Part shown: positions 7,213 through 33,106 of the stretch, in pieces | How the letters are laid out: the number at the start of each line of letters is the position of its first letter | Numbering within the stretch: position 1 is the first letter of the stretch | Assembly: GCA_026985975.1 (NCBI GenBank) | Contig: JALSPL010000327.1 | Location: 1-35,857, forward strand | DNA from: Anaerolineae bacterium | GTDB taxonomy: Bacteria; Chloroflexota; Anaerolineae; J102 | Direction: 5' to 3' | Length of the DNA: 35,857 nt | Translations under genes and position numbers: made by a program | Notes under the pieces: generated by a model | Told to the model about the DNA's origin: nothing | The model's input: only the letters and a program-made list of their open reading frames with translations | Database searches by the model: none

Positions 7213-7503
7213 TTAGCGATCTTGTTTGCGAATAATCAACTGACGGATGATGTCCTCGCTAATGCCCATGGCCCGAGTGAGCTCAGACACTTTGGAGCCA
7301 TCCATTTTGAAATCGAACTGGATGTAGGTGGCTTCCAGTTGTTTTTGGATAGGATAGGCCAACTTGCGTCGTCCCCAGGGAACCGCCTGGATTTCCTCCC
7401 CTCCCAGGGATTGAATGTGCTCTTGCAGCCATTGAGAGGCTTTTTCGACGCCTTCCTCATCCAGATTCGGATGGAAAAGAGTCACCATTTCGTACTCAGT
7501 CAT
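7213..7503 (-). CDS. rpsF: 30S ribosomal protein S6
   Basis: MTEYEMVTLFHPNLDEEG...VPWGRRKLAYPIQKQLEATYIQFDF is a typical S6. Start is ATG 7503 with a GGAG SD (AAAAGGAGAAAAATCT-ATG). The upstream 40 codons of the track ORF are 5'-UTR. Confidence 0.93.
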   Translation of the reverse strand: MTEYEMVTLFHPNLDEEGVEKASQWLQEHIQSLGGEEIQAVPWGRRKLAYPIQKQLEATYIQFDFKMDGSKVSELTRAMGISEDIIRQLIIRKQDR

Positions 7504-7622
7504 AGATTTTTCTCCTTTTCTATGGATTGAATAGTCACAGGTCAACCTCGAAAGCGAGGGGCCCATGACAGAAAAGATTTTCAAGGGAACAGATGTATCC
7601 CTTTTTTCGTGACAACCGAACA

Positions 7623-7652
7623 ATTATGCCACAAAAAAGCGCCCTCTCACAA
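7623..7652 (-). promoter_or_regulatory. candidate promoter of the rpsF-ssb-rpsR operon
   Basis: On the minus strand: TTGTGA (rc 7647-7652) - 18 nt - CATAAT (rc 7623-7628). This would give a ~110-nt leader containing the hairpins GGGA..TCCC and CCTCG-cttt-CGAGG (7547-7560). Confidence 0.4.
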
Positions 7653-10347: not shown

Positions 10348-10370
10348 AGGCGACTCCTGTAAGAAAACAA

Positions 10371-10383
10371 GGTGCAATGCACC
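10371..10383. promoter_or_regulatory. 13-bp perfect palindrome GGTGCA-A-TGCACC upstream of the membrane SpeE-like gene (candidate operator)
   Basis: It lies 24-36 nt upstream of the proposed GTG start. The T7 tract at 10394-10400 (rc) may end the upstream YabN-like transcript. Confidence 0.3.
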
Positions 10384-10467
10384 CTTATGCGAAGATGCAA
10401 AAAAATCGGCGGCCCTGCAAACGCCAGGACACACCGATGGCTATTTTAGACCGGTTAGAGGGGGATG

Positions 10468-12360: not shown

Positions 12361-12390
12361 AAAGAAAGGCGGAGCCTTTCGACTCCGCCC
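12361..12390 (-). terminator. Rho-independent terminator after the 1,722-aa surface-protein gene
   Basis: The minus strand reads GGCGGAG-tcgaaagg-CTCCGCC followed by TTTCTTT, about 25 nt past the stop. Confidence 0.75.
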
Positions 12391-12413
12391 TGTACGAGAA
12401 ATGGCGATTGCGC

Positions 12414-15400
12414 TCAATGTGATTCTTGCAACACCCAAAGCTGGTTGGCCAGTTTTGCGCCCACAAAAATCTGACTGCCGGCATCGTCGACAGCGACGCC
12501 AAAGGGGCCCCTGCCCACAGGGATGTTTTTGACGATGACATTGGTGGGAGCGTCCAGCACCGAGACGGAATTGGATTGCATACTGGGAATGAAGACATGT
12601 CCGGTGCGGGCGTCTATGCCAATGCGCCCGGATGCGTCGTCGCCGATATCAGGCAAAGCCACAGTGGCGATACGCTTCAGTCCCCGAGCAGTCACGTTAA
12701 ACACGCCCAGCCTTGCGCCAAAACCAGGCCCGCGATAAGTGACATACAACCGGGCGTTATAGCGATTGTAAGCCAAGGCGTATACCGAACCGACGACATC
12801 CTGCGTGTTGACGCGATAGCTGTCGAGAATGCTCCAGGTGGTGGCCGAGACAACGGTGACGGCATTATGATCGCGTGAGCCGACATAGACGCGATTGTTC
12901 GTTTCATCCACCGCCAGCCCAAACGCCCCGCCTGCTACGCCGATTCCGCGCAGTCGGGTGTCGCTGGCGCCGTCGATCTCCTCCAGGCGGTTGCTGTCGT
13001 GAGCGACGACGTAGATGCGGTTGGAGGTCTGGTTCACTGCGATATAGGTGGGAAAATCTCCGACGCTTATTCTTTTGATGACGCGATTCCCGGCGCCGCC
13101 GATGACCGCGATCTCGTTACTAAGGGGGCAGGCCACATAGATTTTGTTGGTGCGGGCGTTGACAGCCACGCCAAAGGGCCGCTGACACACGGGGATCGTG
13201 GCCACATGGTGATAATCTGTCGCGCTGAGCACCAGAACGTCGCCGCTGTCGCGGTTGGTGATGTAGAGGGAGTTGTTGGCGGCGTTCAAGGCGAGATCGT
13301 TGGGAGTGTTGAGCCCGGAAACGCCAGCATTGTGAGGCGTGATCAAAACCGGTCGCGGCGTGGGCGTGGGCGGAACGGGCGTCGGCGTGGGAGGCGCAGG
13401 CGTAGGCGTGGGGGGAATGGGTGTGGGCGTGGGGGGAACCGGCGTAAATGTCGACGTCGGGTAGGCGGCGCTGACGCCGACGTTGGTGATGATGGGCACC
13501 CAAACCTGGTGGGGCATCCCGGCAGGCGGGCCTGGCGTGGGCGTCGGATCATCAATGGCCCCCTGGAGTTGCAAGGTTCCGCAGCGGGTGTGCACATACA
13601 TGGTGAAATCTTCGCCGGCATGACCGCCCGGATAGGTGTAGACGTAACCGCCGTCCTGTTTATGCCAATAGGGCTGATACAATGTCCACGTCACTGGCCC
13701 GGAGTAGGCTTTGATGGTGAAAGTAGTGGAACGCTGCCAGGGCAAGGCATTTACAGACCACACATGAGCGTCATCCCAGAGCGGAATGCTGTAATCCCGT
13801 CCCCAGATATTGAATTCCAACCGACTGGAAGCGTAGCAACCCTGAGGCAGTACAGGCGTGGGCGTCGGCGTGGGCGTATTGCAGGGACAGCCGGGCGTCG
13901 ACGTGGGCGTCAGCATCGGCGTTGGGGTGGGGGTGCTGGTGGGCGTCCACGAGGGGTTGATGGTGGGAGTGTTGGTGGGCGTCTGCGACGGATTTACCGT
14001 GGGAGTGCTGGTGGGCGTCACGGATGTCTGCCGATTCTTGAAACGCACCTGTGTGCAGTTGCGCCCGCTGAAGACCGTCACTTCAAATCGCTCAGAGGTG
14101 ACCGGCTCCCAGCCGCTCTGCATTTCTTCCCACACCTCCCACTGACCAGGCGCCAATCCCTGGAACTCGAAGTAACCGGAGCCGTCGGTCTGGGTGATGT
14201 ATTCAGGATTGGGATTACCTGCGGGGCGGACATGGATACGCCAGTCGGGCAGTCCGACATGCAAATCATCCACTTTGTAGCCGCTGATGCAGCCGGGCTC
14301 GCCGCTGGGCGGTCCCACCGTCACGACCTCGTCATCACTATCCACCACGGGATTGTTCTCATCATCGAAACCCGAGGTGATGGCGACGTTGGTGTGCGTA
14401 TCGCCCTCGCGACCGCGGACAATCTGTTGGAAGGTGCAGGCGTAGCTGCCGCCAACGGGGATAGTTTGAGGCAAAACGCAGTCCCCCATACCGTTCAAGT
14501 CACCATAAACCGAGTCGGCCAGCGTCAGAATATCGATAGGATCAGCGGGACTGGTGTTGCTGATGGTGATGGTGAAAGAAACCACACCGCCCGGCTCGGG
14601 CACGACGCTGGGGCTGGCGGTTTTCGTCAGCACGATGGTGGGCAGCACATCGGTGATGAAGACGTCGGCGTCGTCATTGGCGCTGACGCCGCTGCCATCA
14701 TCATCTGTGCCCGTAGCTGCCACAATATCGGTTTCCACATCCCCGGCATTGCCGCTAACCGTGGCGGTGAAGTGACATTCATAGGATGCGCCCACAGCCA
14801 GCGTCTGAGGAACCGAGCAGTTTCCCTGCCCGTTCAAATTGCCGTGGATGTCATCCGTCAGGGTTTCGATGGTGACTTCGTCGGCGGGGCTGGTGTTGGT
14901 GATGATGACGCTAAAGGTGACAGGACCGCCCGGTTCCGGCAGGCTGGTGGGATTGGCGGTCTTGGTGAGAACGATGGATGCGGGCACGTCGGTGATGTTG
15001 ACAGTTGCGTCATCGCTGGCGTGGACATCGTTGCCGTCGTCATCAGTGCCGGTCACAATGGCGATATTGGTTTCGCTGTCACCGGCATTACCGGTCACTG
15101 TTGTCGAAAAACTGCATGTGTAGGACGCCCCCGCGGCCAGCGTTTGGCCCACTGCACAGTTGCCGCGACCGTTGAGATTGCCGTAGATGGAGTCGGTGAG
15201 CGTATCGATGGTGATGCTATCGACGGCGCTGGTATTGGTGATGCTGAAGGTGAATGTGACGATGCCGCCCGGTTCGGGCACGCTGGTGGGATTGGCGACT
15301 TTGGTCAACGCCAGTGAGGAGGGTGAATCGATGATGCTGACATGGGCGCTGTCGCTGCTCTGCACCGGATTGTTCAGCGTATCGGCCCCGGACGCCGTCA

Positions 15401-17582: not shown

Positions 17583-17587
17583 CGCCT

Positions 17588-20446
17588 TCACTCCTTTACC
17601 ACAAGGGGTAAGAAAATCTGCTGATCGGGCGACAGTGCGTTCACCGGGAGTGAAAGCGCCGGATCGCCCATTAATAAAAAGGTGTCAACTAGATCGAGAT
17701 AACTTTGAGAGGGGGCGTTGGCAGCCAGATAAAGTTTGCCGGCAGTGGCGGCCGCCCCGAGTTCCTGACCAGAACCATGAAAGACGGAAAGGAAAAAGCC
17801 TTTCTCAAGATAATCATGGCCGGAACTGAGACCGTAACCGGTGGGCGCCCAACTGGCAATGGCGCCGTTGTCCGCCAGACGCATGCCAGCTTCGCTGGTG
17901 GATTGATCGCCGCGTGCGGGTTCGATAAAGTAGCCTTCGTTGCAGGTCATGGGTAACATGATGGGAAATTTACGACCATTCTGCATTTGTGATGCAGCCG
18001 TTACATCCCAAATGCGTTCTCTGGCCCAGAAAGTCTTGGCGCCGTGGCCGATGAAACTAACGAAGAGAGCGCCCTGATCATCCAGAACATGCTGCATTTT
18101 CTGCCGACAATCCGGGCCCGAGTTGCAGGTGCGGTCGAGATAAAGCTTGGTGCGAGCGTACTGCCCGGGGATGAGCTTGGTGGCGTTGGTCGGTGGATCG
18201 ATGTAGCCGTCGGCGATGGCGTCGGAGAGTTCGTAGAAATTCCCGCCGCCGCCTTCCAGATTATCGGTGACGAAGAGGATGTTACGGGTCCAGGCGTCAT
18301 CGACCGTGGTGCGCTCATACGTCAGGATTTTATCCACCATGGCCGCGGTTTCAGCCGCTGTGTTGGCGGGCAGACGCCCGATGTGCATGTCTGGCAGAAT
18401 ATCGTCGGCGGTGATGGCAACGAAACGATTATCAGTAGCCGTTTCGCCCAGGGTGGGGTCCACCATGTCCAGATAAGGTGGCAGGAAGGTGTCGGCGCTG
18501 GTGCTGAGATAATGCCTCATGTCATACGTGCCATCCCCCACCAGCAGGACAAAGCTGGGGGCGGGAGGCTGCCAGTGTGCGTAGGCGTAGGCCAAAAAAT
18601 CTCTGATAGCCTCGGCGGACATCATGCCATAGCCGAATTCGTCGTAAACATCCTGCGTGCTGACAGCCATCACCCGATAGCCTTGCGCCGATCGATGGTC
18701 GAGCAGGGGCCTGATGGCCTCACCGAAATCGGGATGGAAGATGACGATGTAGTCTGCGCCATTCTCCGGCGAGGCCAGGGGGACCTTGCCGGTCTCCTTC
18801 TGCTGGATGGCCAATGGTTTCCGGCGCTGGCCTCGGGCCTGGGCCAGGTATTTTCGGGAGGTCGCGGTTGTGTCGCCAAACTGCAATCGATACTGCCCGC
18901 CGCCCATATCCACGGCCTGCCAGCCGGTCAGGCGATGGGTGTGGACAGGATCGCTGATATCGTACAGCTCCAGATCGGAAGAAGTGAAGCCATCCACCTG
19001 ATAGCGCCAGGCTCCAGCCTGTTCGCTGCCGAATTCGAGCCTGTTCTCCCGGGCCAGCAAGATGCGATGGTAGGATAGCTGAATCCAATCTACATAGATC
19101 TGATCGATGGTCTGTCCGGGATCGTCATTCATCAATTCGATACGAACGACGTTGTCGCCAGAGTGCAGATAACTCTGAGAAAAAGAAAAGGTTTTCTCAA
19201 AGACAGTGCGTCCCTGCCAGACGTCATCTTTTATCAAATGTCCGTTCACATACAGACGCAGATGATGTTGGGCGTTTGTATTGCCGCCCAACGCCAGGGC
19301 AATTTCAGCCTGATGGGAACCATATGCCAGGTCTGAAAGCGTCAGCGTGTAATCATAGTGATGGGTTGCTCCCTGCCCATAAACATCAAGACGGCTACCA
19401 TACCAATGATCATAGCCTTTTTCCATGGGAAGCCCGGGAACATAAAACCGGTTCTCCTCGCTGAGAATGCTGGTCTCATAAGAGGTGACAGCAGTTGTAT
19501 TGGGTTGACTGCGGCGATCGCTCATGCGAAGGCCAAATCCATTGCCATAAGTCAGCCAATAGACATTGGCGTCGGTATAGCGGGTGTCGACACCCTGGCC
19601 ATAAAACAAAAGTGCATCTCCCTGATCAAGACGAGAATTCTCCTCTCCGGTTACGGTTATCGCCACTTCTTTTCCAAAATTGAATAATTTCAGGGTGCGG
19701 GGATCTAATGTATCCACCGGCAAGCCTGCATCACGCAGATCCTGATAGCTGAGCTCGTAGACGCCTGGCTTGTCCACCAAGATGCGCCAGGCGGGCGTTG
19801 GCGGCGTCCAGACGCCGATTGCAGGAGAAATGACGTCAGGCTGCGCCCGAAAGGAACGGGCTTCGTCGTAGTTTGCCAACAGTTCCCGGAAGATAGCCTC
19901 ATAGGAGTCAGGTTCGGGGATGCTTGCGCCCGCTTCGCCGCCCTGAAAACGCACATGCACCTGCATTCGCCTGACGAAAAGCGCTTGACCGGTGAGAGGA
20001 TCTTTCTGTACAGCAGGGACTTCCAGGCGTACGATGCGTTGTGAGCGCATGAAGCCCAGATCAATCACCTGCGCTTTGATCATGTCATTGGCGGCCGACT
20101 GAGGAAAGGATGCAGACAACGCGTCGCAGAGCAGGCCGATATCTCCCAATGATTCCGCGTCCAACGGCTGGACGGTGACGGAGACAAGCGCCCGCGGCGG
20201 CGCTCCCAGCAGCAACGAACGCAGGGGCGCAGCGCCATTGCCGAGAACCAGACGCTGACAGGAGACGCCACCCACCTTGTCGGAGACAAGCCGATAGGAA
20301 TCAAAGCTCAGGCGCAAGGTCAGGCCCGTGGCGTCGCTTTGCAGCGCCTGCACAGAGGGGCGTGACGGGCCTTCGGCCTGCGCGGGCGTAAGCTGCAACA
20401 GGGAGAGGAGAAAAAGAGAGATGACAAAAACAACAAATCTTCTCAT
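17588..20446 (-). CDS. secreted family C25 (gingipain/PorU-type) cysteine peptidase
   Basis: Signal peptide: MRRFVVFVISLFLLSLLQLTPAQA/EG. C25-type core: YIVIFHPDF...LVGDGTYD...TDNRFV...MHIGRLP. Catalytic His context: FVSFIGHGAKTFW (His codon ~18044-18046). Catalytic Cys context: IMLPMTCNEGYF (Cys codon ~17942-17944). The protein ends in LMGDPAL. The first ATG is at 20446; the track's TTG is at 20452. Confidence 0.85.
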   Translation of the reverse strand: MRRFVVFVISLFLLSLLQLTPAQAEGPSRPSVQALQSDATGLTLRLSFDSYRLVSDKVGGVSCQRLVLGNGAAPLRSLLLGAPPRALVSVTVQPLDAESLGDIGLLCDALSASFPQSAANDMIKAQVIDLGFMRSQRIVRLEVPAVQKDPLTGQALFVRRMQVHVRFQGGEAGASIPEPDSYEAIFRELLANYDEARSFRAQPDVISPAIGVWTPPTPAWRILVDKPGVYELSYQDLRDAGLPVDTLDPRTLKLFNFGKEVAITVTGEENSRLDQGDALLFYGQGVDTRYTDANVYWLTYGNGFGLRMSDRRSQPNTTAVTSYETSILSEENRFYVPGLPMEKGYDHWYGSRLDVYGQGATHHYDYTLTLSDLAYGSHQAEIALALGGNTNAQHHLRLYVNGHLIKDDVWQGRTVFEKTFSFSQSYLHSGDNVVRIELMNDDPGQTIDQIYVDWIQLSYHRILLARENRLEFGSEQAGAWRYQVDGFTSSDLELYDISDPVHTHRLTGWQAVDMGGGQYRLQFGDTTATSRKYLAQARGQRRKPLAIQQKETGKVPLASPENGADYIVIFHPDFGEAIRPLLDHRSAQGYRVMAVSTQDVYDEFGYGMMSAEAIRDFLAYAYAHWQPPAPSFVLLVGDGTYDMRHYLSTSADTFLPPYLDMVDPTLGETATDNRFVAITADDILPDMHIGRLPANTAAETAAMVDKILTYERTTVDDAWTRNILFVTDNLEGGGGNFYELSDAIADGYIDPPTNATKLIPGQYARTKLYLDRTCNSGPDCRQKMQHVLDDQGALFVSFIGHGAKTFWARERIWDVTAASQMQNGRKFPIMLPMTCNEGYFIEPARGDQSTSEAGMRLADNGAIASWAPTGYGLSSGHDYLEKGFFLSVFHGSGQELGAAATAGKLYLAANAPSQSYLDLVDTFLLMGDPALSLPVNALSPDQQIFLPLVVKE

Positions 20447-20611
20447 GGTCAAGGCGCGGAATTTCAGCGAGCGGGGGGAGATGAAAGCAAAACAGGATGG
20501 GAGCGAAGTCCGACAGCGCCTCTGGGTCGGGCGTCCATCTCCGCCAGCAGCGCAGCGGCGCTGACAAGAAGCGCTCTGAACGCTTTCAAAACGATACCCG
20601 AAATGCGTGGC

Positions 20612-20657
20612 AAATGGGCAGGTTTCGAGTGACTAAGCTCTCGAAACCTGCCCATTT
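20612..20657 (-). terminator. 18-bp perfect hairpin between the giant gene and the C25 peptidase gene (putative terminator/attenuator)
   Basis: AAATGGGCAGGTTTCGAG (20612-20629) / CTCGAAACCTGCCCATTT (20640-20657), with a 10-nt loop. It lies ~30 nt past the giant gene's stop. There is no U tract in the minus orientation. Confidence 0.5.
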
Positions 20658-20688
20658 TCTGTCCCATGGGAGGATTCGCGCACGCCGG

Positions 20689-23600: not shown

Positions 23601-26600
23601 CATCCTGCAAACCGTTGGCGTTCAGATCCAGCCACACCAGACTGCCCACCGACACCGGCTCGATGAAGCCGAAGTCCACGGTCATGTTGCCGTCGGCGTC
23701 GGGGTTGCCGTCCTGATCGGGGGAGCCGTCGGCGAAGGTCTCGCCCGTGGGCTCCTGGCCATTCACCAGGGTGACCACGCCGCTGCGGTAGACGCCGGGC
23801 GAGGACTCGGTGGCGATGTTGGAGTCGGCGTTGTCGTCATTGTTGGGGTCGGCCACCTGCGGGGAGGTGGGATTGAGACCCGCGGGCGGGGTCACCTGTA
23901 CGATGTAATCGCCGGGGGCCAGGTTGGTGAAGTGATAGACGCCATCTGTTCCCGTAGTGACGTCAGCCACGGGGTTGCCGTCGATGTCATTGGCGGGCGT
24001 GCCATCAGCATTGAGGAGAGAGACCGTCGCGTTTTCGATGCCCGGTTCACCCACATCCTGCAGACCATTCGCGTTCAGATCCGACCATACCAGGCTGCCC
24101 AGCGACACCGGCTCGATGAAGCCGAAGTCCAAGGTCATGTTGCCGTCGGCGTCGGGGTTGCCATCCTGATCGGGGCCGCCATCGGCGAAGGTTTCGTCGA
24201 CAGGCTCCGTTCCCGGAGACAGGGTGATGAGATCGCTGCGATAGACGCCCGGAGTGGGCTCGGTGGCGATGTTGGAATCCGCGTTGTCATCATTGTTCGG
24301 GTTTGTCACTTGCGGCGATGTGGGACTATAGCCGGCAGGCGGCGTCACCTCGACCATGTAGTCGCCGGGCATCAGGTTGGTGAAATGATAGACGCCATCA
24401 GGGCCGGTGGTGACATCGGCCACAGGGTTGCCGTTAACATCATTGACAGGATTGCCGGCGCTATCCAGCAAATGCACGGTGGCATTCTCGATGCCGGGCT
24501 CGCCCGCATCCTGCACGCCGTTGCCATTGGCGTCGTGCCAGACCAGGCTCCCCAGGGAGACGGGCCGGATAAAGCCGAAGTCCAGAGTCATGTTGCCGTC
24601 GGCGTCAGGATTGCCGTCCTGGTCGGGGGAGCCATCGGCGAAGGTCTCGCCCGTGGGTTCCGCGCCGGGCAGCAGGCTGACGACGCCGCTGCGGTAGACG
24701 CCGGCGCTGGGCTCGGTGGCAATGTTGGAATCCGCATTGTCGTCGGTGTTGGGGTCGGCCACTTGCGGCGGGGTGGGAAGATAGCCCGCAGGGGGCTGCA
24801 CTTCCACCATGTAGTCGCCGGGAGGCAGATTCACGAAGTGATAGATGCCGTCCGGGCCTGTGGTGATCGGGTTGATGGGGTTGCCGTCAACATCCTGGGT
24901 GACGGGAGCGCCGCTGCTGTCAAGCAGGGTGACGGTGGCGCCGTCCACGCCGGGCTCGCCGTCATCTTGCAGGCCGTTGGCGTTGAGATCCAGCCACACC
25001 AGGCTGCCCACCGACACAGGCCGGATGAAGCCGAAGTCCACGGTCATGTTGCCGTCCGCGTCGGGGTTGCCGTCCTGATCGGGGGAGCCGTCGGCGAAGG
25101 TCTCGCCCGTGGGCTCTGTTCCGCCCAACAGGCTGACAATTCCACTGACGTACACGCCGGGGTTGGGCTCGCTGGCGATGTTGGAGTCGGTATTGACATC
25201 GTCATTGGGATTGGTCTGCTGCACGGGAGTGGGACGGAAGCCCGCGGGAGGCTGCACCTGCACCTGATAATCGCCCGGCGGCAGGTTGCTGAAATTGTAG
25301 AGGCCGTCGGCCGCGGTGGTGACCGGGCTGATGGCGTTGCCGTCCAGGTCCTGCGTGACGGGATTGCCAGCGCTATCCAGCAAGGTGACGATCGCCCCCT
25401 CGATAGGCGACTCGCCCACATCCTGCACGCCATCCAGATTGGAATCCAGCCACACCAGGCTGCCGATGGAGACGGGCTGGACGAAGCCGAAGTCCACGGT
25501 CATATTGCCTGAATCGTCACGTTTGCCGTCCTGGTCGGGGCTGCCGTCGGCGAAGGTCTCGCCCGTGGGCTCGCCGCCGATGCTGAGGGTGACAGGGTCG
25601 GAACGATAGACGCCGGGGCTGGTTTCGGCCGCGATGTTGGAATCGGCGTTGTCGTCGTTGTCGGGGTCGGGCGTTTGCGGCGGCGTGGGTTTCATGCCCG
25701 CAGGGGGCTGCACCTGGATGATGTACTCTCCCTGAGGCAAATCGGTGAAATGGTAGACGCCGTCTGCACCGGTGGTGACGGGCGTGATGGCGTTGCCGTT
25801 GATGTCGGTGGTCACGGAGTTGCCCGCGGCGTCCAGCAAGGTGACGGTTGCGCCCTCGATGGGCGGCTCGCCCGCATCCTGGATGCCGTTGGCGTTGTCG
25901 TCGCGCCACACCAGGCTGCCTACAGAGACAGGCAGGGTGAAGCCGAAGTCGATGGTGAGGTCGCTGTTGGCGTTGGACGTCGTCTCTTGCGGGTCCTCGT
26001 CCACGGGCTCCTGGCCCGGGCTGAGGTTGATGGGCGCGCTGCGCACGCCGGCGCCGATGGCGGCTGCGCCGTCGTTGTCGCCGTTGTCATCGGTGTTGTC
26101 CTGATCGTCGCCGCCCTGACCGGGACTGCCATAGGCGTCGGGATAGAGGCCGCCTGCACCGAAGACGTTGCCCGCATCCCAGTTGGAGGCGTCCACCTCG
26201 ACGATGTAATCTCCGGGGGGTAGGCCGCCGAAGTTATAATAGCCGTTGGCGTCGGTGGTGGTGACAATGGGAGCGCCGGCAGCGTCGGTGACCGGATTGC
26301 CAGCGCTGTCCAGCAGGTTGACCAGCACATCCTGGATAGGAGGCTCGCCAGCGTCCTGCACGCCGTTGCCATTTTCATCGAACCACACATAGTTGCCCAG
26401 GCTCATGAGGACGTAGTCCTCGACCTCGCCGTCCAGGGCCAGGCCGTCGGGCCCCAGGATGCCCGGGGGATCATTGGGAGGATCGCTGGCGGTTTCGTAG
26501 CTGGTAAAGCGGAAACGACTGTAGATGGGGTCGAGCGTCGTCGTATTGGCGGGCGCATCGAAGGTGTAAATATGGGATCCGGCGGTGACGGGATAATCCC

Positions 26601-29600
26601 GCATGGCCGTGGGCGAGCCCAGCGCCACGCCATCCACTGCGGTGATCAGAATATCATCCAGTACGCCATCGGCGTCGAAATCGAACCAGCCATGGAGGTA
26701 ACCATCGGCGTTGGCTACAATCTGAACATTGGCGGGCTGGCCGGGGATGATGGGCGTCAGGAAGGTGACGCCATCCTCGTCATCGGTTCCGGATGCGGGA
26801 TTGTCGTCGTCGCCCGTAGCGGCGGCATTGGGTTGACCATCGGGCTCGGCGTCTACTGCCGCCCCCAGGAAGTAGGGGTTCGCCCCCGAGGGAATGAGGT
26901 GACGGGCGCCGTTGTTGGCGGAAAGGGTGGGATAAGGGCCGTCGGGCAGGTCGCCGAACTCGCCATCCACCTGAACCGGGGCGACGTCGTTGTCCGTGTA
27001 CTCACGCTCACGACCAGGAAAATCGCCATCCATGCTGGTCCAGGTAATGACGGCGTTGTTGTCAATAGAGCCGCCCGCATCCAAATCACTGGTGATATCC
27101 GCAGTGTATTCAATGACGTAAGTCGTGCCCAGGGGGATGTCGAAGGAGCCGGTGTCAGGGATGCGCAACACGCCGGTGACAGGATCATAGGACCAGGTAA
27201 GGAGTGACGGCGACATGCTGGTCACCTGCACATTGGTCAATGAAGCGGGCAACGTGTCGGTCATAATCACGCCATAGGCGTCCATAGCGCTGTCCGCAGT
27301 ATGTTCGATGGTCACCCTGTATTTTATCTGACCGCCGGGCCCGATTGGATCGGACTGAGAGATGACTTCCTTGGTGATGTTCAGGAAGGGCTCAATGATA
27401 TTGATGGCGACCGTATCGGTGATCGTTTCGGTTTGCTGATTGTTGGGATTGGTGTATTGCAGCTTGCCGATGTTGTCTCTGACGTCGCCGTTGCTGTTAT
27501 CGGGGATATCCAGCACCCGGGCGATAATCTCGATCAGGAAACTGTTGTTGCCAGCGTTGTTGTCGGCGGTGGTGACGGTGTTTCCGAAATTGAAGGTGAC
27601 ATCGCCGCCGCTGCCGCCGGGTGCGGTGACCGTGGGCGTGGGCAGCGCGCCATTAAAGTCGTCGCCCAGACGCCCGCCGCTGGCCGCGGCCGTGGTGATG
27701 ATCTGGTGGCTTTGGTATTCCAGGCCCAGGGGGAGATCATCCACGACCACCATGTCCAGCGTCGTGCCCTCGGGCAAGGTTACCTTGATGTAGTAGGAGA
27801 TGTCCTCGCCAATGGCGTAGTCGGTGGGGCTGGGATCCAGCTTATCCACCTGTGGAGAGTCGATGGTGATGTCTTCGCTGTCGCTAGGCCCATAGAGTCG
27901 TTCGCCTGTCTCGGCGTCGGTGGCGCCGGGCGTGTCGGAGCCGGTGGGATTGCCCGTGGTGCCGTTAGGGCCGGGCAGGCTGGTATAGGCCAGATCTGCG
28001 GTGTTGGGGATGATCTCCCCGGCGCTGACGCTGGTGCGCACAGTGACGGTGATGAGGATAGTGACCTGATCGCCCGGCTCCAGCTTGTCGATGAGGAGAT
28101 GCACCTCATCAGCCGTGGCGTCGGAGTTGTTGGTGACGGCGGCGTAAGCGGGCGCAGTCCAGGTGACATTGTTGGGGTCGGTGAGGTCCAGGTTGGCGTC
28201 GAGGATGTCATCCACGGCCAGGTCGAAGGCGGTGGATGCGGCGCCGTCATTGGTCAGGGTAAGCTGATAGGTGACTTCATCGCCGGCGTCGATGGGCGGG
28301 AGCGTTGTGACGGTCTTGACGATGCTGACGGCAGGCTCCACCAGGTTGACGGTCACCGGAGCGGAGGTATAGTCGAAGGAGTCAAAGGTGACGCGGAAAC
28401 TGTTATCCAGCGTATCGCCTGCGGCATTCCCGGACACATTGAGCACCAGGGCGTTGAATTCGATAACCACAAACTCTTCATTGTCGTCCTGATCGGAATT
28501 GGTGACCGTGCCCAGAGTGAAGATGGGGTCTACGCCATCAGCAAAAGGCCCGCCCGAGATGGTGAACTCGGTGGAGGTCATGGCGTTGTCGGAAATAAAG
28601 CTCAGTGCGGCGGTGTTGTCATCCAGGAATTGCAGCCCGGCTGGCAGGGTGTCGGTGATTACGAAATTGGTAAGATCGCCCTCGGGAACCGAAACGGTGA
28701 GTTTGTAGCGCACGATCTCGCCGATGGTGAGGTCTGGGTCGGTGGTGTGGGCTTCGGAGGTGGTCACCAGGTTTTTTTCGGGTTTGTTGATGAGCTGCAC
28801 CTGATAGTCCTCCACCTCGCCGTAGTTCACCGCGCCAGTGGGTCCCAGGCCCTGTTTGTAGCTGAGGCGGAAGCGGGCATGGGTGGTGCCGGGCGTGGCG
28901 CCGGCGGGCACGGGGATGTTCAGGGTGAGGACGCCGTCGGTGGTTCCCTGGGCGGCTACGACATCGGCGGCGATCTGTTCCCCGGCGTCATTCCAGTCGC
29001 CATCGCCGTTGAAGTCCAGCCAAGCATTGAGATAGGCGTCGCCCAGAATGATGTTATCGGGTACAGTGACCGTCACATTCCACGTGCTGGTCTCGCCGAT
29101 GACCATGATAGCCGAGGGCAGTTCGGGCGTTCCCAGATATTGGTCAAAGGTCACGCCGTCTTCGTCGTCGGGCGTCTGGTTCTGGTCGTCGCCCCAGGCC
29201 GAAATCTCGGGGAAGCCGTCATCCTCACCATCCACGGTTGCGCCCATATGCAGGTTATTCTTCAACACATGTCGGGCTGCGTCGGCAGGTTCCAGTCCAG
29301 CATTCGCCAGATCTCGGGCGTTGGTGGGATAAAAGTCTGTGGCGTTATCGAAAGGGGCGTCACTGTAGTCTGTGGGGCGATACATGCCGAAATCCCAACT
29401 TCGATCATCCACGTTGCCCGTGAGGGAGATATCAGCAGTCTGGTAATAATCGCCGTAGGTGGCGTCTGTCCCGGGTATCTCCCCATCGCTGTCCAGATTG
29501 TCATCGCCGCCCTGGTTGGGGGGACTGGCCGTATAACCTGATGGCGGGAAAAAGCGAAGATAGTAGTTGCCGTCAGGCAGATCAGTGAATTGATAATAGC

Positions 29601-32600
29601 CGGGTTTGCCGTCTTGATCGGGCCCGGTGATCTTGTAGTCGATGAAAGCGTCGGTGTCTGCATTCCAAAGCTCCACCCGCACGCCATTCACGCCCCAGGC
29701 GGCTTGCTGTTCCACAGGCTGCTGGATGCCGTCATTCTCGATCCCGGCAACGTCCAGCCATGTATAGTCGCCCAGACTGTTACGTCGCAAGGGCGCGACG
29801 CGAATGCCCACTTTGAGGGGCTCGGAGGGAAGCAGTTCCAGATGGTCGGGATCGTTTTGCCCGTCGTTATCCTGGTCGCGGAATTCCACCGCCTTGAAGC
29901 CAAAGGAGTTCCACGCTATCTGGCAGTCGGGGTTGGCGTCGGGATCGAAAGAGTCGTCAGCGGGGGTGAGACAGGAAGGGTCTCCAGGCGCGTCCGCCGG
30001 CGCTGTCATGTGCCAACCGAAGCGCAATGTCTCGTCGGGCTGCAAAACAAGACATTCGTTCACCGTGCCGTCTGTGTTGTAGGTGCAGAAATCGACCTTG
30101 ATGGATTGCACGGACGAGGGATTTTGGGGCAGGGTGGTGCTCCAGTAAGGCTTCTGACAGTTGGGGGGCTCATCCAGGCTGGGAACAAAATCAGGTCGGC
30201 AGGGATTGGACGCCCTGCTGTAGAATACCGTGAAGGGGATGCCGCCAACGAGATCGACCACTTCCTCTTGAAGATTGGGTCGCCATTTACTGAGACGAGG
30301 GGAAAGATCGATAACGCCTGTATCGCCGATGTAAGGCGTGATATCCAGGAAGCTCAAGGCTGTGACGGGTACGTTGCTGTTGTTGATGGTTTGCACCAAA
30401 TAGTCGACCCGTTCGCCGGGCATGGTCAACCCCAGCTTATTGAAGTCGCCGGCATATTGGCCGCCAACGCTCAAGTCATCACAGACTGCGGGATCATTAT
30501 AGGTGTCGCAGTCGATCTCGCCCCGCACCCATTTCTCTGAATCCATAGAAAGGAAGACGCCCACTTCGGTGGTTTCCGTAGCTAGACAACTTTCTTCAAA
30601 TGTGTTGCCATCACCATCCAGATCATTCACATCTACGTATTTATCCGGATCCTGACAAAGAAAAATCTTACGCAGATCGGAGTTGGGGGGATCGTCAGGG
30701 TCGGTGGGGCCGGTCCAGTCCACGATGGTGGCCTCATTGGTGACCGTGCCCGGCGGCGTACCCTTCTTCACCTGCACGGTGAACGTGATATTGGCGTCTT
30801 CGCCCGGCTGGAAGCTGTAGCTGGCATCCACGCCGCAGGTTCCTTCGATGCTGTTAGGATCACAGCCGCCGCCGGTCAGGTCCTGCCAGGTCCAGCGCAG
30901 CAGGGTGCGCCCGGTGCCGTTGTAGTCGGGGATGACCTCGAAGTTGGGGTCGGGCGCGCCCGCGGGCTTGGAGGTGACGGAAGCGCTGCCGGCGACGTAG
31001 TCGAATTCGGGGGGCAGCAGGTCCACCAGCATGGGGTTGTCCAGGGGCAGTTGGGCCACTGCATCATTGTTTAATCCCACGGAAAAGTCAACGAATCCTT
31101 CAGGCAAGACCGATTGACCACCGGAAGTTTTACGTGGTCGGGGGATAGCGCGTTCATCGATGACGCTCACCGCCGAACAGGCGTTGCTTTCCACGCCATT
31201 ATCTGAAGTAAACCCCGTACAGTTCTCAAAAGATTCCGCCGGATATGAGGGTTCGATCGTTGTATCCACCTCAGCGATCACCGTCGATGCCCAAGAGGCG
31301 CCGATAGCCAATGTTCCCAGTTGCCATTGCAAGTCGGTAATCCGGTTGCCGCCTTGCAAATCCAAGGTGGTTGCATCAATCGTACTCTCGGCTGCATAGG
31401 GATTTCCTGGTAGCGGAATCCAATTGCCAGAATCATCAACTTGATAATAACCGTTTACCGCATCACCCGGGGCGCTTGCCGGGCCAATAGTAAGACTAAG
31501 AAGGATGGTTTGAGATGGTAAAGTATCGGTCACGACGACATTGTGCAAATCTTCGTAGCCAGTATTGACGACGCTCACTTCATAAGTGACATCTTCACCG
31601 GGAATTGCTTCCGTTCCTTCGTAGGATGAGGGGCTTGATGATGTTTTCCCACTCTCGCCTGCCGGATAGGGTTCGATCACATCGAAGGGGAGCGTGTCGG
31701 TTAGTATCGCTTCTGTCTGTCCATCGCAATAGTCAGGCAAATTGTTTTGATCTTGGCATCCTTCAGGCGTTCCAATGGTTTCCATGCTGTTCGTCTGTTG
31801 ACCAGCAGGCAACGTATCATACTGAAGTTTAATTTGCCGGGTAAAACATGCACCGACGGTAATATCAGGCAGATTATACCAACTGACTGTGCGCGGGGTC
31901 GCTGTGCTGTCATACACCCAGCATTCTGGATCGCCGGGGCCTGGGGGAGAATTCCCCGGGCATTGACTCCCTTCGGCGTCGACAAATGCGGCATCGTCCG
32001 GAAGATGATCGATCATAGTTGGAGCCGTGTAGTTTACGCCTCCCTCCACATCTGGGCTACAAACTTGTAGATCGAAAGTGGCGGGAAAACCCACCACTGC
32101 CGGCCCACCCGATTTTGCCGCATACATTTCGAATGCGCCGGTAGCCGTGGTCGAAATCGGAGACGTAGCCACACTCACTGCGTTAGACGCGGAGAAGGTG
32201 GCGGTGTTGGTAGCGGTGGTTCCGGGCACCGTTCCAGGAGGAAATCTCACCTGGAACTTGAGGATGCCCGTGCTGCCCGCGGGCAGGGGATCCACAAAGG
32301 TCCAGGTGACGGTGTGCGTGCCAGGATCATAGCCATACGAAGCAACATGCGGAGTCACGGTGAGCGTGTCCGGAACGAATTCCACTTCGGGCGGCAAAGG
32401 ATCTGTGATCACAGCGCCTTCGCAGTCATCACTGATGCTGGCGCAACGATAGTTAAACACGTACTCGAACGGTTCGCCTGACTCCACCTCGGACTTGAAG
32501 GCGGTTTTGGTGAGTTCCAGTTCGGGTCCGCCCTGAGCCGAGACGCTAACCGGCCCTGTTATCATCACGCCCAACGCAACAAGCAAGACGATCAATGGAA

Positions 32601-32673
32601 TCAGGCGAAATGCGACGCTACGAAACGAGGCCCATTGGGGCATTGCCCTAAGAGAACGAATACGTTGTTTCAT
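20689..32673 (-). CDS. giant (3,994 aa) secreted surface/adhesin-like protein: signal peptide, DUF11-type beta-sandwiches, 12 SdrD-B-like domains, two internal GEVED modules, isopeptide/fimbrial-like repeats, C-terminal Ig-like module
   Basis: An uninterrupted 11,985-nt ORF. Signal peptide: FRLIPLIVLLVALGVMITGPVSVSA/QG. DUF11-like units include LELTKTAFKSEVESGEPFEYVF... and EPAVSIVKTVTT..AGDEVTYQLTLTNDG. GEVED motifs are GEVEDYQVQL (~28805-28822) and GEVEDYVLMS (~26410-26431). The repeated unit reads GSLVW.D.N.NG.QD.GEP.I..A.V.LLD..G.....D..GN......T..DG.Y.F.NL.PGDY.V.V.PP.G. ATG is at 32673 with GAAGGAAGAG upstream. Confidence 0.9.
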   Translation of the reverse strand: MKQRIRSLRAMPQWASFRSVAFRLIPLIVLLVALGVMITGPVSVSAQGGPELELTKTAFKSEVESGEPFEYVFNYRCASISDDCEGAVITDPLPPEVEFVPDTLTVTPHVASYGYDPGTHTVTWTFVDPLPAGSTGILKFQVRFPPGTVPGTTATNTATFSASNAVSVATSPISTTATGAFEMYAAKSGGPAVVGFPATFDLQVCSPDVEGGVNYTAPTMIDHLPDDAAFVDAEGSQCPGNSPPGPGDPECWVYDSTATPRTVSWYNLPDITVGACFTRQIKLQYDTLPAGQQTNSMETIGTPEGCQDQNNLPDYCDGQTEAILTDTLPFDVIEPYPAGESGKTSSSPSSYEGTEAIPGEDVTYEVSVVNTGYEDLHNVVVTDTLPSQTILLSLTIGPASAPGDAVNGYYQVDDSGNWIPLPGNPYAAESTIDATTLDLQGGNRITDLQWQLGTLAIGASWASTVIAEVDTTIEPSYPAESFENCTGFTSDNGVESNACSAVSVIDERAIPRPRKTSGGQSVLPEGFVDFSVGLNNDAVAQLPLDNPMLVDLLPPEFDYVAGSASVTSKPAGAPDPNFEVIPDYNGTGRTLLRWTWQDLTGGGCDPNSIEGTCGVDASYSFQPGEDANITFTVQVKKGTPPGTVTNEATIVDWTGPTDPDDPPNSDLRKIFLCQDPDKYVDVNDLDGDGNTFEESCLATETTEVGVFLSMDSEKWVRGEIDCDTYNDPAVCDDLSVGGQYAGDFNKLGLTMPGERVDYLVQTINNSNVPVTALSFLDITPYIGDTGVIDLSPRLSKWRPNLQEEVVDLVGGIPFTVFYSRASNPCRPDFVPSLDEPPNCQKPYWSTTLPQNPSSVQSIKVDFCTYNTDGTVNECLVLQPDETLRFGWHMTAPADAPGDPSCLTPADDSFDPDANPDCQIAWNSFGFKAVEFRDQDNDGQNDPDHLELLPSEPLKVGIRVAPLRRNSLGDYTWLDVAGIENDGIQQPVEQQAAWGVNGVRVELWNADTDAFIDYKITGPDQDGKPGYYQFTDLPDGNYYLRFFPPSGYTASPPNQGGDDNLDSDGEIPGTDATYGDYYQTADISLTGNVDDRSWDFGMYRPTDYSDAPFDNATDFYPTNARDLANAGLEPADAARHVLKNNLHMGATVDGEDDGFPEISAWGDDQNQTPDDEDGVTFDQYLGTPELPSAIMVIGETSTWNVTVTVPDNIILGDAYLNAWLDFNGDGDWNDAGEQIAADVVAAQGTTDGVLTLNIPVPAGATPGTTHARFRLSYKQGLGPTGAVNYGEVEDYQVQLINKPEKNLVTTSEAHTTDPDLTIGEIVRYKLTVSVPEGDLTNFVITDTLPAGLQFLDDNTAALSFISDNAMTSTEFTISGGPFADGVDPIFTLGTVTNSDQDDNEEFVVIEFNALVLNVSGNAAGDTLDNSFRVTFDSFDYTSAPVTVNLVEPAVSIVKTVTTLPPIDAGDEVTYQLTLTNDGAASTAFDLAVDDILDANLDLTDPNNVTWTAPAYAAVTNNSDATADEVHLLIDKLEPGDQVTILITVTVRTSVSAGEIIPNTADLAYTSLPGPNGTTGNPTGSDTPGATDAETGERLYGPSDSEDITIDSPQVDKLDPSPTDYAIGEDISYYIKVTLPEGTTLDMVVVDDLPLGLEYQSHQIITTAAASGGRLGDDFNGALPTPTVTAPGGSGGDVTFNFGNTVTTADNNAGNNSFLIEIIARVLDIPDNSNGDVRDNIGKLQYTNPNNQQTETITDTVAINIIEPFLNITKEVISQSDPIGPGGQIKYRVTIEHTADSAMDAYGVIMTDTLPASLTNVQVTSMSPSLLTWSYDPVTGVLRIPDTGSFDIPLGTTYVIEYTADITSDLDAGGSIDNNAVITWTSMDGDFPGREREYTDNDVAPVQVDGEFGDLPDGPYPTLSANNGARHLIPSGANPYFLGAAVDAEPDGQPNAAATGDDDNPASGTDDEDGVTFLTPIIPGQPANVQIVANADGYLHGWFDFDADGVLDDILITAVDGVALGSPTAMRDYPVTAGSHIYTFDAPANTTTLDPIYSRFRFTSYETASDPPNDPPGILGPDGLALDGEVEDYVLMSLGNYVWFDENGNGVQDAGEPPIQDVLVNLLDSAGNPVTDAAGAPIVTTTDANGYYNFGGLPPGDYIVEVDASNWDAGNVFGAGGLYPDAYGSPGQGGDDQDNTDDNGDNDGAAAIGAGVRSAPINLSPGQEPVDEDPQETTSNANSDLTIDFGFTLPVSVGSLVWRDDNANGIQDAGEPPIEGATVTLLDAAGNSVTTDINGNAITPVTTGADGVYHFTDLPQGEYIIQVQPPAGMKPTPPQTPDPDNDDNADSNIAAETSPGVYRSDPVTLSIGGEPTGETFADGSPDQDGKRDDSGNMTVDFGFVQPVSIGSLVWLDSNLDGVQDVGESPIEGAIVTLLDSAGNPVTQDLDGNAISPVTTAADGLYNFSNLPPGDYQVQVQPPAGFRPTPVQQTNPNDDVNTDSNIASEPNPGVYVSGIVSLLGGTEPTGETFADGSPDQDGNPDADGNMTVDFGFIRPVSVGSLVWLDLNANGLQDDGEPGVDGATVTLLDSSGAPVTQDVDGNPINPITTGPDGIYHFVNLPPGDYMVEVQPPAGYLPTPPQVADPNTDDNADSNIATEPSAGVYRSGVVSLLPGAEPTGETFADGSPDQDGNPDADGNMTLDFGFIRPVSLGSLVWHDANGNGVQDAGEPGIENATVHLLDSAGNPVNDVNGNPVADVTTGPDGVYHFTNLMPGDYMVEVTPPAGYSPTSPQVTNPNNDDNADSNIATEPTPGVYRSDLITLSPGTEPVDETFADGGPDQDGNPDADGNMTLDFGFIEPVSLGSLVWSDLNANGLQDVGEPGIENATVSLLNADGTPANDIDGNPVADVTTGTDGVYHFTNLAPGDYIVQVTPPAGLNPTSPQVADPNNDDNADSNIATESSPGVYRSGVVTLVNGQEPTGETFADGSPDQDGNPDADGNMTVDFGFIEPVSVGSLVWLDLNANGLQDDGEPGVENATVSLVDAAGNPVTDIDGNPVADVTTGPDGVYHFTNLAPGDYRVRVTPPAGFIPTPPQVADPNNDDNADSNIATEPSPGQYESGSVTLTVGGEPTGELFADGSPDQDGNPDASGNMTVDFGFIRPVSLGSFVWQDSNGNGVQDAGEPGIENATVRLLDSAGNPVNDVNGNPVADVTTGPDGVYHFVNLPPGDYMVEVTPPAGYSPTSPQVTNPNNDDNADSNIATEPSAGVYRSGVVSLLPGAEPTGETFADGGPDQDGNPDADGNMTVDFGFIEPVSLGSLVWLDENANGIQDAGETPVENATVSLLFSDGSPATDMDGNPVADVTTGTDGVYHFTNLAPGDYIVQVTPPPGYAPTPSQTADPNTDDNSDSNIADEPTPGVYASGVVTLTVGGEPTGELFADGSPDQDGNPDADGNMTVDFGFVEVVSVGSLVWQDDNNNGIQDAGEPPIQGATVILLDGAGNPITQDASGNPINPVTTGSDGVYNFANLPPGDYIIQVSPPAGFTPSAVQQPDPNTDDNTDSNIADEPNPGEFRSGVVTLSVGGEPTGENFADGSPDQDGNRDDSGNMTVDFGFVPTANLGSLGDLVWWDKNHDGIQDAGEPGIEGVALTLTDGVTLHATTDANGVYTFTDLVADVYTVTVDASNFQAGGPLANWTPSPAKVGSDDAVDSDGDETTHDYSVTLGAGENNPNIDFGFYVTSSYTLTKKLNTQGDIRVGDPISFTIAITNTGGSWLAVLPLTDTYDTTYLSYGANGNYANPPSDDNNDDGQIDWSDLTAQVGDIAPGDTVTVTVWFTTLADTGNEPDGLTLNTATASGVMADADGPNGPLPPDESLDAIQGQTSGDAPVVILKPTGLFVVDFSAEVEDRDVTLNWETVSELNILGFQVLRQEGLGAKAEVVQEAFVPARWSGMDHGGEYGITAADLAPGVYRYILQAVLMDGRIVNEGSVRITIRSGRAAHR
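21481..26405 (-). repeat. tandem coding repeat array: 11 SdrD-B-like units, nine canonical with period ~453-456 bp, organised as a ~1,359-bp (3-unit) higher-order repeat
   Basis: Unit boundaries (VS.GSLVW-encoding motif) lie near 21840, 22290, 22745, 23200, 23655, 24105, 24560, 25015, 25470, 25925 and 26400. 22922-23170 aligns with 24281-24530 at roughly 9 of 10 positions, with perfect runs of 30-40 nt. 22533-22630 aligns with 23893-23990 with a 57-nt perfect run. Confidence 0.9.
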
Positions 32674-33106
32674 AAGATTTCTCTTCCTTCCGAATTATAA
32701 ATGGTGATCATATAAAAATTGTCTCATGATGCAGAGTATTACATGACTGTAAAAAACATCTTGAGATAAAGACTATCAACGAACAGAAAAGTTACGGTCA
32801 CAATTCCCTAATCTGTCATGAAATTTGTTCTCATACGCCTTCCAACCAAGATAAGTATGAAAATGAGGACAACCATCAAGCGGCCACAGCAAATGTATCA
32901 ATGACAAGACGCCGCATTATGCACGATAACCCCAAAAAATTCAAAAGAATGAATAAGCTATTTCATCGCATTGAAGTGCGATTGCCCGTCTGCTCGCCCC
33001 ATGCAACGACATCGATCTCAGTCTTCAAAAACATCGATGAGCTTACTTGCATCGGCAGGCCCGTCAAGGATCTTCCACCGCCCCTCTGTCACGCGTTGAC
33101 GGCAAT
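32674..33106 (-). promoter_or_regulatory. AT-rich 433-bp intergenic island upstream of the giant gene (promoter/5'-leader region, exact elements unresolved)
   Basis: Strikingly low G+C by eye, about one third in the first 60 nt, versus ~60% in the flanks. A TATAAT (rc of ~32693-32698) lies ~20 nt upstream of the ATG, but without a convincing -35. Confidence 0.5.

Follow-up and report, generated by a model that had tools for sequence, protein, structure and literature searches.

The DNA analysed here is a 35.9-kb window, by which we mean the whole stretch under study (35,857 nt of contig JALSPL010000327.1, assembly GCA_026985975.1, from an Anaerolineae bacterium). Open reading frame (ORF) calling on this window identified three co-directional minus-strand genes in about 20 kb, which encode a giant repeat protein (giant 1), a family C25 cysteine peptidase and a second giant repeat protein (giant 2). 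The initial annotation, made from the sequence alone, had described the same three-gene arrangement, and all three ORFs were recovered on the minus strand (Table 1). Searches with Pfam, NCBIfam and our own hidden Markov models (HMMs) placed in giant 1 DUF11/CLIPPER and GEVED domains, isopeptide-forming fimbrial domains (TIGR04226 of NCBIfam, 135 bits), 12 SdrD_B repeats (Pfam SdrD_B, 2.3e-261 over 12 stretches) and a C-terminal Fn3-like domain, referred to below as the stalk. DUF11 is an isopeptide-bond domain that has been named CLIPPER (PMC12617251). Giant 2 begins with a hydrophobic segment (signal/anchor), followed by SdrD_B, eight DUF11/CLIPPER repeats, a prealbumin-like domain, PT linkers, a Cys-containing domain that precedes the short motif VWVPIITN, a further PT linker and a YncE-like beta-propeller. 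Both giants are thus predicted to be Sec-exported proteins built of isopeptide-type immunoglobulin-like (Ig-like) repeats (SdrD_B, DUF11/CLIPPER).

The giants carry none of the anchoring signals that were looked for, namely an LPXTG sequence followed by a transmembrane helix, an SLH match, a lipobox cysteine, and a C-terminal transmembrane helix or hydrophobic segment. An LADTG sequence at residue 3831 of giant 1 was considered as a sortase signal and rejected, as it lies inside a domain and no transmembrane helix follows it. The initial annotation had noted this absence correctly; what it overlooked are the ~90-residue domain at the end of giant 1, a C-terminal tail FLPLVVK on the peptidase and the related motif inside giant 2.

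To place the cassette among its relatives, we compared the window with relatives' loci including flanks of up to 10 kb. Locus ORFs were called by a simple longest-ORF greedy scheme, which is reliable for large genes and not for small ones. A protein search yielded 148 relatives of the peptidase, and the few of these with source names belong to Anaerolineae, Caldilineaceae or Chloroflexota. Scanning one genome per GTDB species returned at least 568 C25 loci, nearly all from Chloroflexota, the few others being from Brocadiaceae, Pirellulales, KSB1, Omnitrophota and a metagenome-assembled genome (MAG) labelled 'Cytophagia'. Among relatives with 41-78% peptidase identity, the gene order is an SdrD_B/DUF11 giant, often a C25 paralogue, the C25 peptidase and a DUF11/SdrD_B giant. 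The first giant of this order ends in the stalk, as seen in L003, L004, L007, L009, L010, L011, L015, L017, L041, L082 and L083. The same order was obtained from our own ORF calls and from Pfam-annotated public gene calls that had been made independently. The genes around the cassette vary from locus to locus, and the cassette has therefore been inherited or moved as a unit. We concluded that the 20-kb block represents a single surface-protein cassette conserved in Chloroflexota (Anaerolineae/Caldilineales type). The proposal made in the initial annotation depended on an alignable catalytic dyad and on conserved adjacency of the C25 gene and the giant SdrD_B/DUF11 genes; the adjacency is retained next to different flanking genes, and the dyad is described below. 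In public records the relatives are named only "C25 family cysteine peptidase" or "hypothetical protein".

A C25 peptidase most closely related to PorU

Searching the peptidase encoded at 17588-20446 against Pfam gave a match to Peptidase_C25 (PF01364) over the full length of the model (residues 568-935, model positions 1-374 of 374; E = 2.4e-79, 267.7 bits compared to a cut-off of 23). His801 in the sequence IGHG and Cys835 in MTCNEG align with His211 and Cys244 of RgpB and with the corresponding residues of PorU, as had been anticipated, and both are invariant in 71 of 71 aligned homologues. Profile match, dyad and a caspase-like alpha/beta fold together identify the protein as a member of family C25 (clan CD), and the intact His/Cys dyad predicts a catalytically competent enzyme.

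The best NCBIfam matches were the models of PorU (T9SS_sortase, NF033707; 282.4 bits against a cut-off of 420, residues 223-938 aligned to model positions 9-735) and PorU2 (NF052324; 252.5 bits against a cut-off of 450), with alignments that reach well past the catalytic domain. By sequence, PorU in the PDB (6za2) was matched at 7.7e-14, and similarity to the gingipains was weak (E about 1e-6). An AlphaFold2 (AF2) model built from 71 sequences had a pLDDT of 91 and a pTM of 0.89. Its best PDB match in Foldseek was latent PorU (6za2_B; E = 2.4e-29 over 819 columns, global TM 0.40-0.45). The catalytic domain also matched RgpB (1cvr and 4ief, TMt 0.66-0.67) and Kgp (TMt 0.61), and the N-terminal region matched the prodomains of RgpB (4ief_A, TMt 0.62) and Kgp (5mun, TMt 0.50). 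PorU is therefore the closest relative of the peptidase in both sequence and structure.

The order of the protein is signal peptide, gingipain-like prodomain, PorU-like beta-sandwiches, catalytic domain and a disordered tail carrying the motif. The Pfam family PF08126 is recorded in homologues at no more than 52% identity, and the window peptidase itself gave no direct match to it. The prodomain ends in a conserved AR.WR sequence, in which Arg200 is present in 60 of 71 homologues, and is followed by a variable Pro/Ala linker. Asp742 aligns with the S1 residue Asp163 of RgpB; this column contains D in 55, N in 14 and E in 2 of the 71 sequences, and the acidic residue is compatible with specificity for Arg/Lys. 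No correlation was apparent between the S1 residue (D or N at 742) and the R or K of the tail, since P0066 and P0084 combine N with R tails. Behind the catalytic domain only about 17 residues remain. They give no Por_Secre_tail match and end in ...QQIFLPLVVKE followed by the stop. We considered that the tail might dock on the enzyme as an intramolecular strand or pseudo-substrate; this was not supported, as residues 941-952 are disordered in the AF2 model.

Compared to PorU of the Bacteroidota type IX secretion system (T9SS; PMC4560394, PMC4804311), the window peptidase shares the C25 family, the same dyad, homology that continues into the N-terminal beta-sandwich region, a genetic tie to proteins with a constant C-terminal module on varied passengers, and a C-terminal element on the enzyme itself. 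In contrast to PorU, it falls below the cut-off of the model (282 versus 420), lacks a T9SS C-terminal domain (CTD) and a PorV/PorZ/PorQ context, and has a gingipain-type prodomain; in place of a T9SS beta-sandwich CTD, its partners bear an Fn3-like domain and/or a linear motif of 7 residues. Also, cleavage by PorU has been reported to be independent of sequence (PMC4804311), whereas a sharp sequence motif is conserved here. Based on the score below the cut-off and the missing T9SS CTD, we do not regard the peptidase as a PorU equivalog. Genes for T9SS core components (PorK/L/M/N, Sov, PorV, PorZ) were not found in the 35.9-kb window. To our knowledge, Chloroflexota are not known to have a T9SS, and the peptidase lacks a T9SS CTD and occurs in Chloroflexota-type genomes, in line with the lineage setting that the initial annotation had assumed.

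With the gingipains RgpB and Kgp, the peptidase has in common the catalytic fold, the prodomain fold, an Asp that aligns with the S1 residue of RgpB and a conserved Arg where the prodomain ends. Among the proteins processed by gingipains are surface adhesin polyproteins and type V pilins, and CPG70, the M14 carboxypeptidase of P. gingivalis that is paired with them, trims C-terminal Arg/Lys; M14 carboxypeptidases likewise adjoin distant members of the present family (L049, L037). However, the window peptidase lacks haemagglutinin/adhesin domains, the Ig-like plus CTD architecture and a T9SS context, its sequence similarity to the gingipains is weak, and its N-terminal region is of the PorU type. 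In architecture it is thus not a gingipain. Taking these comparisons by analogy, the peptidase likely resembles PorU in its probable job and the gingipains in its probable mode of activation.

C-terminal elements shared by the peptidase family and its neighbours

The last ~100 residues of giant 1 contain a discrete domain of ~90 residues that has no match in Pfam or NCBIfam; strong representatives of this stalk domain from other loci also matched no model in either database. AF2 predicted a beta-sandwich (pLDDT 89), and the best Foldseek matches were FnIII domains, with a TM of 0.71 to the FN3 domain of Ihog. The possibility that the domain is a T9SS-like CTD was rejected on the basis of the FnIII-like fold, of searches without a TIGR04183 or Pfam match at E <=10 and of the separate CTD that comes after this domain in T9SS phyla; the top 50 Foldseek matches included no T9SS CTD. 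No matches were returned by a word-index homologue search with the 116-residue C-terminal segment of giant 1. The stalk of giant 1 is followed by a basic tail of 12 residues, RITIRSGRAAHR.

An HMM of the stalk found a single copy in each of 81 ORFs from about 80 C25 loci, almost always with 3-30 residues between it and the C-terminus. Of these ORFs, about 57 lie in the neighbourhood of a C25 gene and about 24 encode C25 paralogues. Counted by locus, the domain occurs in 53 of 77 C25 loci and in a non-C25 neighbour in 46 of the 77. Where at least 3 kb of upstream sequence was available, a stalk protein was encoded upstream, on the same strand and within 5 kb, in 32 of 51 loci, and the gaps between the stalk-protein and C25 genes cluster below 500 bp. 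The passengers ahead of the stalk are diverse and include M14 carboxypeptidases, fasciclin, beta-propellers, cadherin-like and NosD-like domains and repeat giants. A constant C-terminal domain on varied passengers is a hallmark of a targeting or anchoring module. The M14 zinc carboxypeptidases with a C-terminal stalk lie beside C25 genes at L049:3-2033 and L037:7027-9042. The linkage was also followed in the reverse direction, from stalk protein to C25 gene; 2 of 4 look-ups fell on contigs long enough to judge, of which one was positive (P0121) and one negative (P0201). P0121, found independently of C25, has about ten stalk copies plus the tail and is flanked by two C25 genes.

The elements that follow the stalk vary: the tail motif described below, a transmembrane helix with an Arg-rich tail, an RRPxFRPxIPE tail, a T9SS CTD, or nothing. 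The transmembrane type includes tiny proteins of 160-170 residues that consist of a signal peptide, one stalk, a transmembrane helix and an Arg-rich tail (tiny or transmembrane-type proteins: L016_0, L016_1, L039_1, L050_1, L050_9, L051_2). P0201, which is anchored in the same way, sits in a Wzy/Wzz polysaccharide locus. The second tail type has the pattern R-R-P-x-[FY]-R-P-x-[IML]-P-[EQ], for example ...IRRPLFRPNIPE before the stop, is distinct from the [FY]LP[LIV] tail and forms the C-termini of L063_0, L073_0, L077_1, L078_6 and L079_0. Directly before the stalk, P-T-[AG]-[VL] is conserved in C25 paralogues and neighbours (e.g. ...CIPTAVRIASF...), with KPTG at residues 3882-3885 as the counterpart in giant 1; it may mark the boundary of the domain or serve for processing.

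The second shared element is the short linear motif at the end of the peptidase. Most Chloroflexota homologues end in x-[QRK]-[LIV]-[FY]-L-P-[LIV]-[VLI]-x-[RK] plus 0-3 residues, and the motif lies within the last 16 residues in 70 of 120 C25 homologues. In about 24 homologues without such a tail, it is instead inserted as a loop immediately ahead of the catalytic domain. The motif, in tail or loop position, is therefore near-universal in the family and positionally flexible. Among 750 locus ORFs, 45 of 65 matches to the motif were within 8 residues of the C-terminus, compared to about 0.3 expected from the internal density, and nine of these 45 were in non-C25 proteins. Neither Pfam nor NCBIfam contains a model that matches this tail.

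In giant 2, a variant of the motif, HQVWVPIITNVG, is located at residues 1361-1372 between the Cys-containing domain and the PT linker plus propeller. The pre-motif domain and motif are internal in the orthologues L003_3 and L004_4 as well, while the orthologues L010_7, L006_2 and L017_3 stop 5-6 residues past them and have no propeller. The propeller behind the motif is thus an optional module. More distant downstream giants have YLPIV-type motifs at the same boundary.

Homologues from T9SS phyla show what can take the place of the tail. In KSB1 and in the 'Cytophagia' MAG, the C25 homologue and, next to it, the stalk-domain protein each terminate in a TIGR04183 CTD (34-43 bits compared to a cut-off of 23; the C25 homologues 34 bits), and the neighbouring protein has the stalk first and then a separate, true CTD. 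This indicates that the tail motif occupies the position of a recognised sorting domain. A stalk followed by alternative ends (tail, transmembrane helix plus Arg-rich segment, T9SS CTD) recalls the PEP-CTERM, MYXO-CTERM, T9SS CTD and 'choice-of-anchor' signals. In contrast to the PEP-CTERM-type signals, stalk and tail are not covered by NCBIfam or Pfam models, and unlike the signals of exosortase, archaeosortase and rhombosortase, the [FY]LP tail has no transmembrane segment. A comparison with the sortase/LPXTG system and sortase-assembled pili likewise reveals similarities, namely candidate cargo made of Cna-B/SdrD_B, SpaA-like and isopeptide-forming fimbrial domains, a short Pro-containing motif at or near the C-terminus and a dedicated cysteine enzyme in the same cassette. 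However, the clan CD caspase-like fold differs from the sortase beta-barrel, the motif sequence is another one, and no transmembrane helix with basic tail follows the motif in the window.

Gene junctions and flanking regions

The initial annotation had proposed that the start of giant 2 overlaps or abuts the stop codon of the peptidase gene. The GTGA sequence at 17588-17591 on which this was based is present, as is AAGGAG at 17591-17596. This Shine-Dalgarno sequence directly abuts the GTG; the ATG at 17582, with which giant 2 begins in public gene calls, follows it after 8 nt. Because of the Shine-Dalgarno spacing and the public gene calls, we favour ATG 17582 and reject GTG 17591. The overlap is thus probably not the true junction; the peptidase stop and the ATG instead abut with a 5-nt spacer. 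Operon organisation and a possible translational coupling of peptidase and giant 2 still stand.

At the other junction, relatives (L003, L004, L010, L083 and others) encode the second C25 paralogue, which ends in the stalk domain, at the position of the 242-nt spacer. The window has no such paralogue, but a 15-residue match to the C-terminus of the paralogue at ~20476-20520 (tblastn E = 0.004, weak) is possibly a remnant of its deletion. A weak hairpin is located inside the spacer at 20572-20593. The strong terminator-like hairpin behind giant 2 likely marks the 3' end of the transcription unit. From there to the MazG-fusion gene, a region of 550 nt has lower G+C and no convincing ORF.

The cassette is flanked by housekeeping genes (MazG/methylase, rpsF-ssb-rpsR, a PpiC-type isomerase, a flippase, cytochromes b and c). 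The ribosomal-protein cluster rpsF-ssb-rpsR lies downstream of the cassette at 6133-7623 on the minus strand, beside the gene of the large PpiC/SurA-like isomerase (4387-6042), and an 844-residue polytopic membrane protein without Pfam match is encoded at 7900-10434. The G+C content is 0.64-0.65 over the SdrD_B block of giant 1 (window 21000-27000) and 0.51-0.55 at the 5' end of giant 1 and upstream (window 30000-33000); GC skew is positive across the whole cassette. In a more distant Anaerolineaceae-type clade (30-38% peptidase identity), the stalk-protein gene is separated from the C25 gene by three others, whose products are a SipW/archaeal-type signal peptidase I (TIGR02228, 57 bits), a radical SAM/SPASM protein and an HprK-related P-loop protein. 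These three genes occur in L034, L046 (e.g. L046:6132-9241), L057, L058, L075, L076, L060, L065, L044 and L030; PqqD is present in L086. This group, which is absent from the window, looks like a peptide/protein maturation set.

Table 1. Genes and features of the cassette, with positions in the window
Feature	Position	Strand	Details and basis
Giant 1 gene	20689..32673	-	3,994 aa; ORF call
Giant 1 N-terminal hydrophobic signal/anchor, aa 1-46 (...GPVSVSA/QGG)	32536..32673	-	sole hydrophobic 19-aa window in giant 1
Giant 1 tandem SdrD_B (Cna-B-like) block, aa 2090-3724	21502..26406	-	11 units of ~151 aa (own HMM coordinates)
Giant 1 C-terminal Fn3-like stalk domain, aa 3894-3982	20728..20994	-	AF2, Foldseek, HMM
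Spacer between giant 1 and peptidase, 242 nt	20447..20688	-	second C25 paralogue at the same position in relatives
C25 peptidase gene	17588..20446	-	952 aa from ATG; longest ORF begins at TTG 20452
Peptidase signal peptide MRRFVVFVISLFLLSLLQLTPAQA	20375..20446	-	direct sequence reading
Peptidase prodomain region, aa 30-200	19847..20359	-	Foldseek matches to RgpB/Kgp prodomains; column counts
C25 catalytic domain, aa 566-933	17648..18751	-	His801 18044-18046; Cys835 17942-17944; Asp742 18221-18223
Peptidase C-terminal tail motif FLPLVVK, aa 945-951	17594..17614	-	homologue counts, AF2
Giant 2 gene	12414..17582	-	1,722 aa from ATG; 1,725 aa from GTG 17591
Giant 2 eight tandem DUF11/CLIPPER repeats, aa 196-1092 (1,725-aa numbering)	14316..17006	-	Pfam DUF11 and DUF7507, own HMM
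Giant 2 pre-motif domain, aa 1252-1372	13476..13838	-	ends in VWVPIITN (13482-13505); shared with orthologues
Giant 2 C-terminal YncE-like 7-bladed beta-propeller	12429..13301	-	Pfam YNCE, NCBIfam beta-propeller repeats
Terminator-like hairpin	12366..12391	-	11-bp stem, 7 G-C pairs, T-rich tail; 23 nt past giant 2 stop

Candidate roles of the peptidase

The stalk and the [FY]LP motif tie the peptidase family to its neighbours and strengthen the functional link between them. A putative T9SS-independent role in processing or anchoring is well supported genetically. More specifically, the peptidase may be a dedicated processing enzyme of the co-encoded proteins that does a PorU-like job without a T9SS; judged from sequence, we regard this reading as evenly poised between right and wrong. 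The initial annotation had suggested a dedicated maturase or sortase-like enzyme. Dedicated processing is supported by the linkage and by the shared C-terminal modules; sortase-like transpeptidation is speculative. According to the proposed mechanism, the peptidase would be exported as a zymogen, become active upon removal of the prodomain at the conserved Arg200, be held at the cell surface via its tail motif and there process the co-encoded proteins at their C-terminal modules, either by plain hydrolysis or in a reaction coupled to covalent attachment. In giant 1 the target would be the stalk and tail, and in giant 2 the VWVPIITN boundary, where cleavage would separate the linker and propeller from the remaining protein.

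Several observations weigh against such a role. The peptidase itself bears the tail and may therefore be cargo of a sorting route and not its enzyme. Most tails stop 0-3 residues after the R/K; a cut there would leave almost no trace, and such a position hardly suits a cleave-and-ligate site. Giant 1 of this clade has the stalk but, with RITIRSGRAAHR as its tail, no [FY]LP motif, and the VWVPIITN variant of giant 2 is without the R/K of [FY]LP[LIV][VIL]x[RK]. In 24 of 77 loci, many of them with short flanks, no stalk domain was seen, and the transmembrane-anchored stalk protein P0201 (locus L087) has no C25 gene within 10 kb. The stalk profile matches 65,034 representatives, many of which are tandem arrays, and thus describes a huge Fn3-like superfamily; this census is dominated by multi-repeat Fn3-like giants and is no clean measure of the size of the C-terminal subfamily. 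As the stalk can recur in tandem, it may be a spacer and not a recognition element. Given the size of the superfamily and the tandem copies, we read the stalk as a membrane- or wall-proximal element tied to this peptidase family, and not as a unique fold.

In the main rival explanation, the peptidase is fellow cargo: a surface-retained degradative (nutritional) or shedding protease that shares a lineage-specific retention signal and regulation with the adhesins, tail and stalk being recognised by a different factor. We consider this possible, if rather improbable. It would account for the tail on the peptidase and on unrelated proteins and for P0201 without a nearby C25 gene, and the interchangeable ends behind the stalk behave like anchors for several distinct machineries; the gingipain-type prodomain and the acidic residue aligned with S1 are likewise compatible with a plain Arg/Lys endopeptidase. 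However, adjacency and direction are tightly kept over the range of 30% to 78% peptidase identity and between phyla, the cassette stays together while its genomic surroundings change, C25 paralogues are duplicated inside it, and P0121 has C25 genes on both sides in the reverse test. Simple co-regulation rarely keeps gene order so well. The same conservation bears on the idea that large secreted-protein genes and a protease gene merely came to lie side by side, with no functional meaning. An order retained in dozens of species-level genomes together with shared C-terminal modules strongly disfavours chance by synteny statistics, and we consider it very improbable.

A stronger version of the processing role is that the peptidase acts as a sortase-like, PorU-type transpeptidase, which would cleave in or after the motif. 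The protein, bound to Cys835 as a thioester, would then be passed on to an acceptor in the envelope or to a further subunit. C-terminal transpeptidation is performed by several clan CD enzymes, among them GPI transamidase, legumain-type ligases and PorU, and PorU is the closest relative in sequence and fold. The giants consist of domains typical of sortase substrates (TIGR04226, 135 bits) and yet have no LPXTG; the motif is linear, disordered and exposed at C-termini, takes the place of the T9SS CTD of T9SS-phylum homologues, and in giant 2 marks the module boundary at which orthologues terminate. On the other hand, many tails end exactly at the R/K and leave no leaving group, and in homologues with the motif as an internal loop before the catalytic domain, cleavage or ligation would sever the enzyme. 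No PorZ or PorV equivalent for acceptor delivery is evident in the window, and giant 1 lacks the motif. We therefore regard transpeptidation as doubtful. If true, it would replace sortase/LPXTG in function for the isopeptide-domain adhesins of Chloroflexota. The broadest formulation, also tentative and in our view unlikely to hold, is a new T9SS-independent C-terminal sorting system in Chloroflexota and a few other lineages, made up of a tail signal, a C25 sortase and, as cargo, giant isopeptide-domain adhesins like the two of the window. The signal may be [FY]LP[LIV][VIL]x[RK], usually after at least one Fn3-like stalk, and the enzyme may be the PorU-like clan CD C25 peptidase, which would cleave the cargo and covalently anchor or polymerise it.

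Literature searches returned no description of a C25/gingipain family in Chloroflexi/Anaerolineae, of PorU outside Bacteroidota, or of the motif. We read the cassette as a putative PorU-like C-terminal processing module outside T9SS. How large surface proteins are displayed or retained in Chloroflexota is essentially unknown, and the envelope type of the phylum is debated; sortase/LPXTG, SLH and T9SS CTD do not account for the giants described here. Profile models of stalk and tail would improve the annotation of thousands of "hypothetical" secreted proteins from metagenomes. A PorU-type family that is consistently linked to two unmodelled C-terminal elements offers a concrete, testable lead to a putative new route of sorting or processing, and the use of the PorU/gingipain scaffold outside type IX secretion bears on the evolution of the T9SS attachment machinery.

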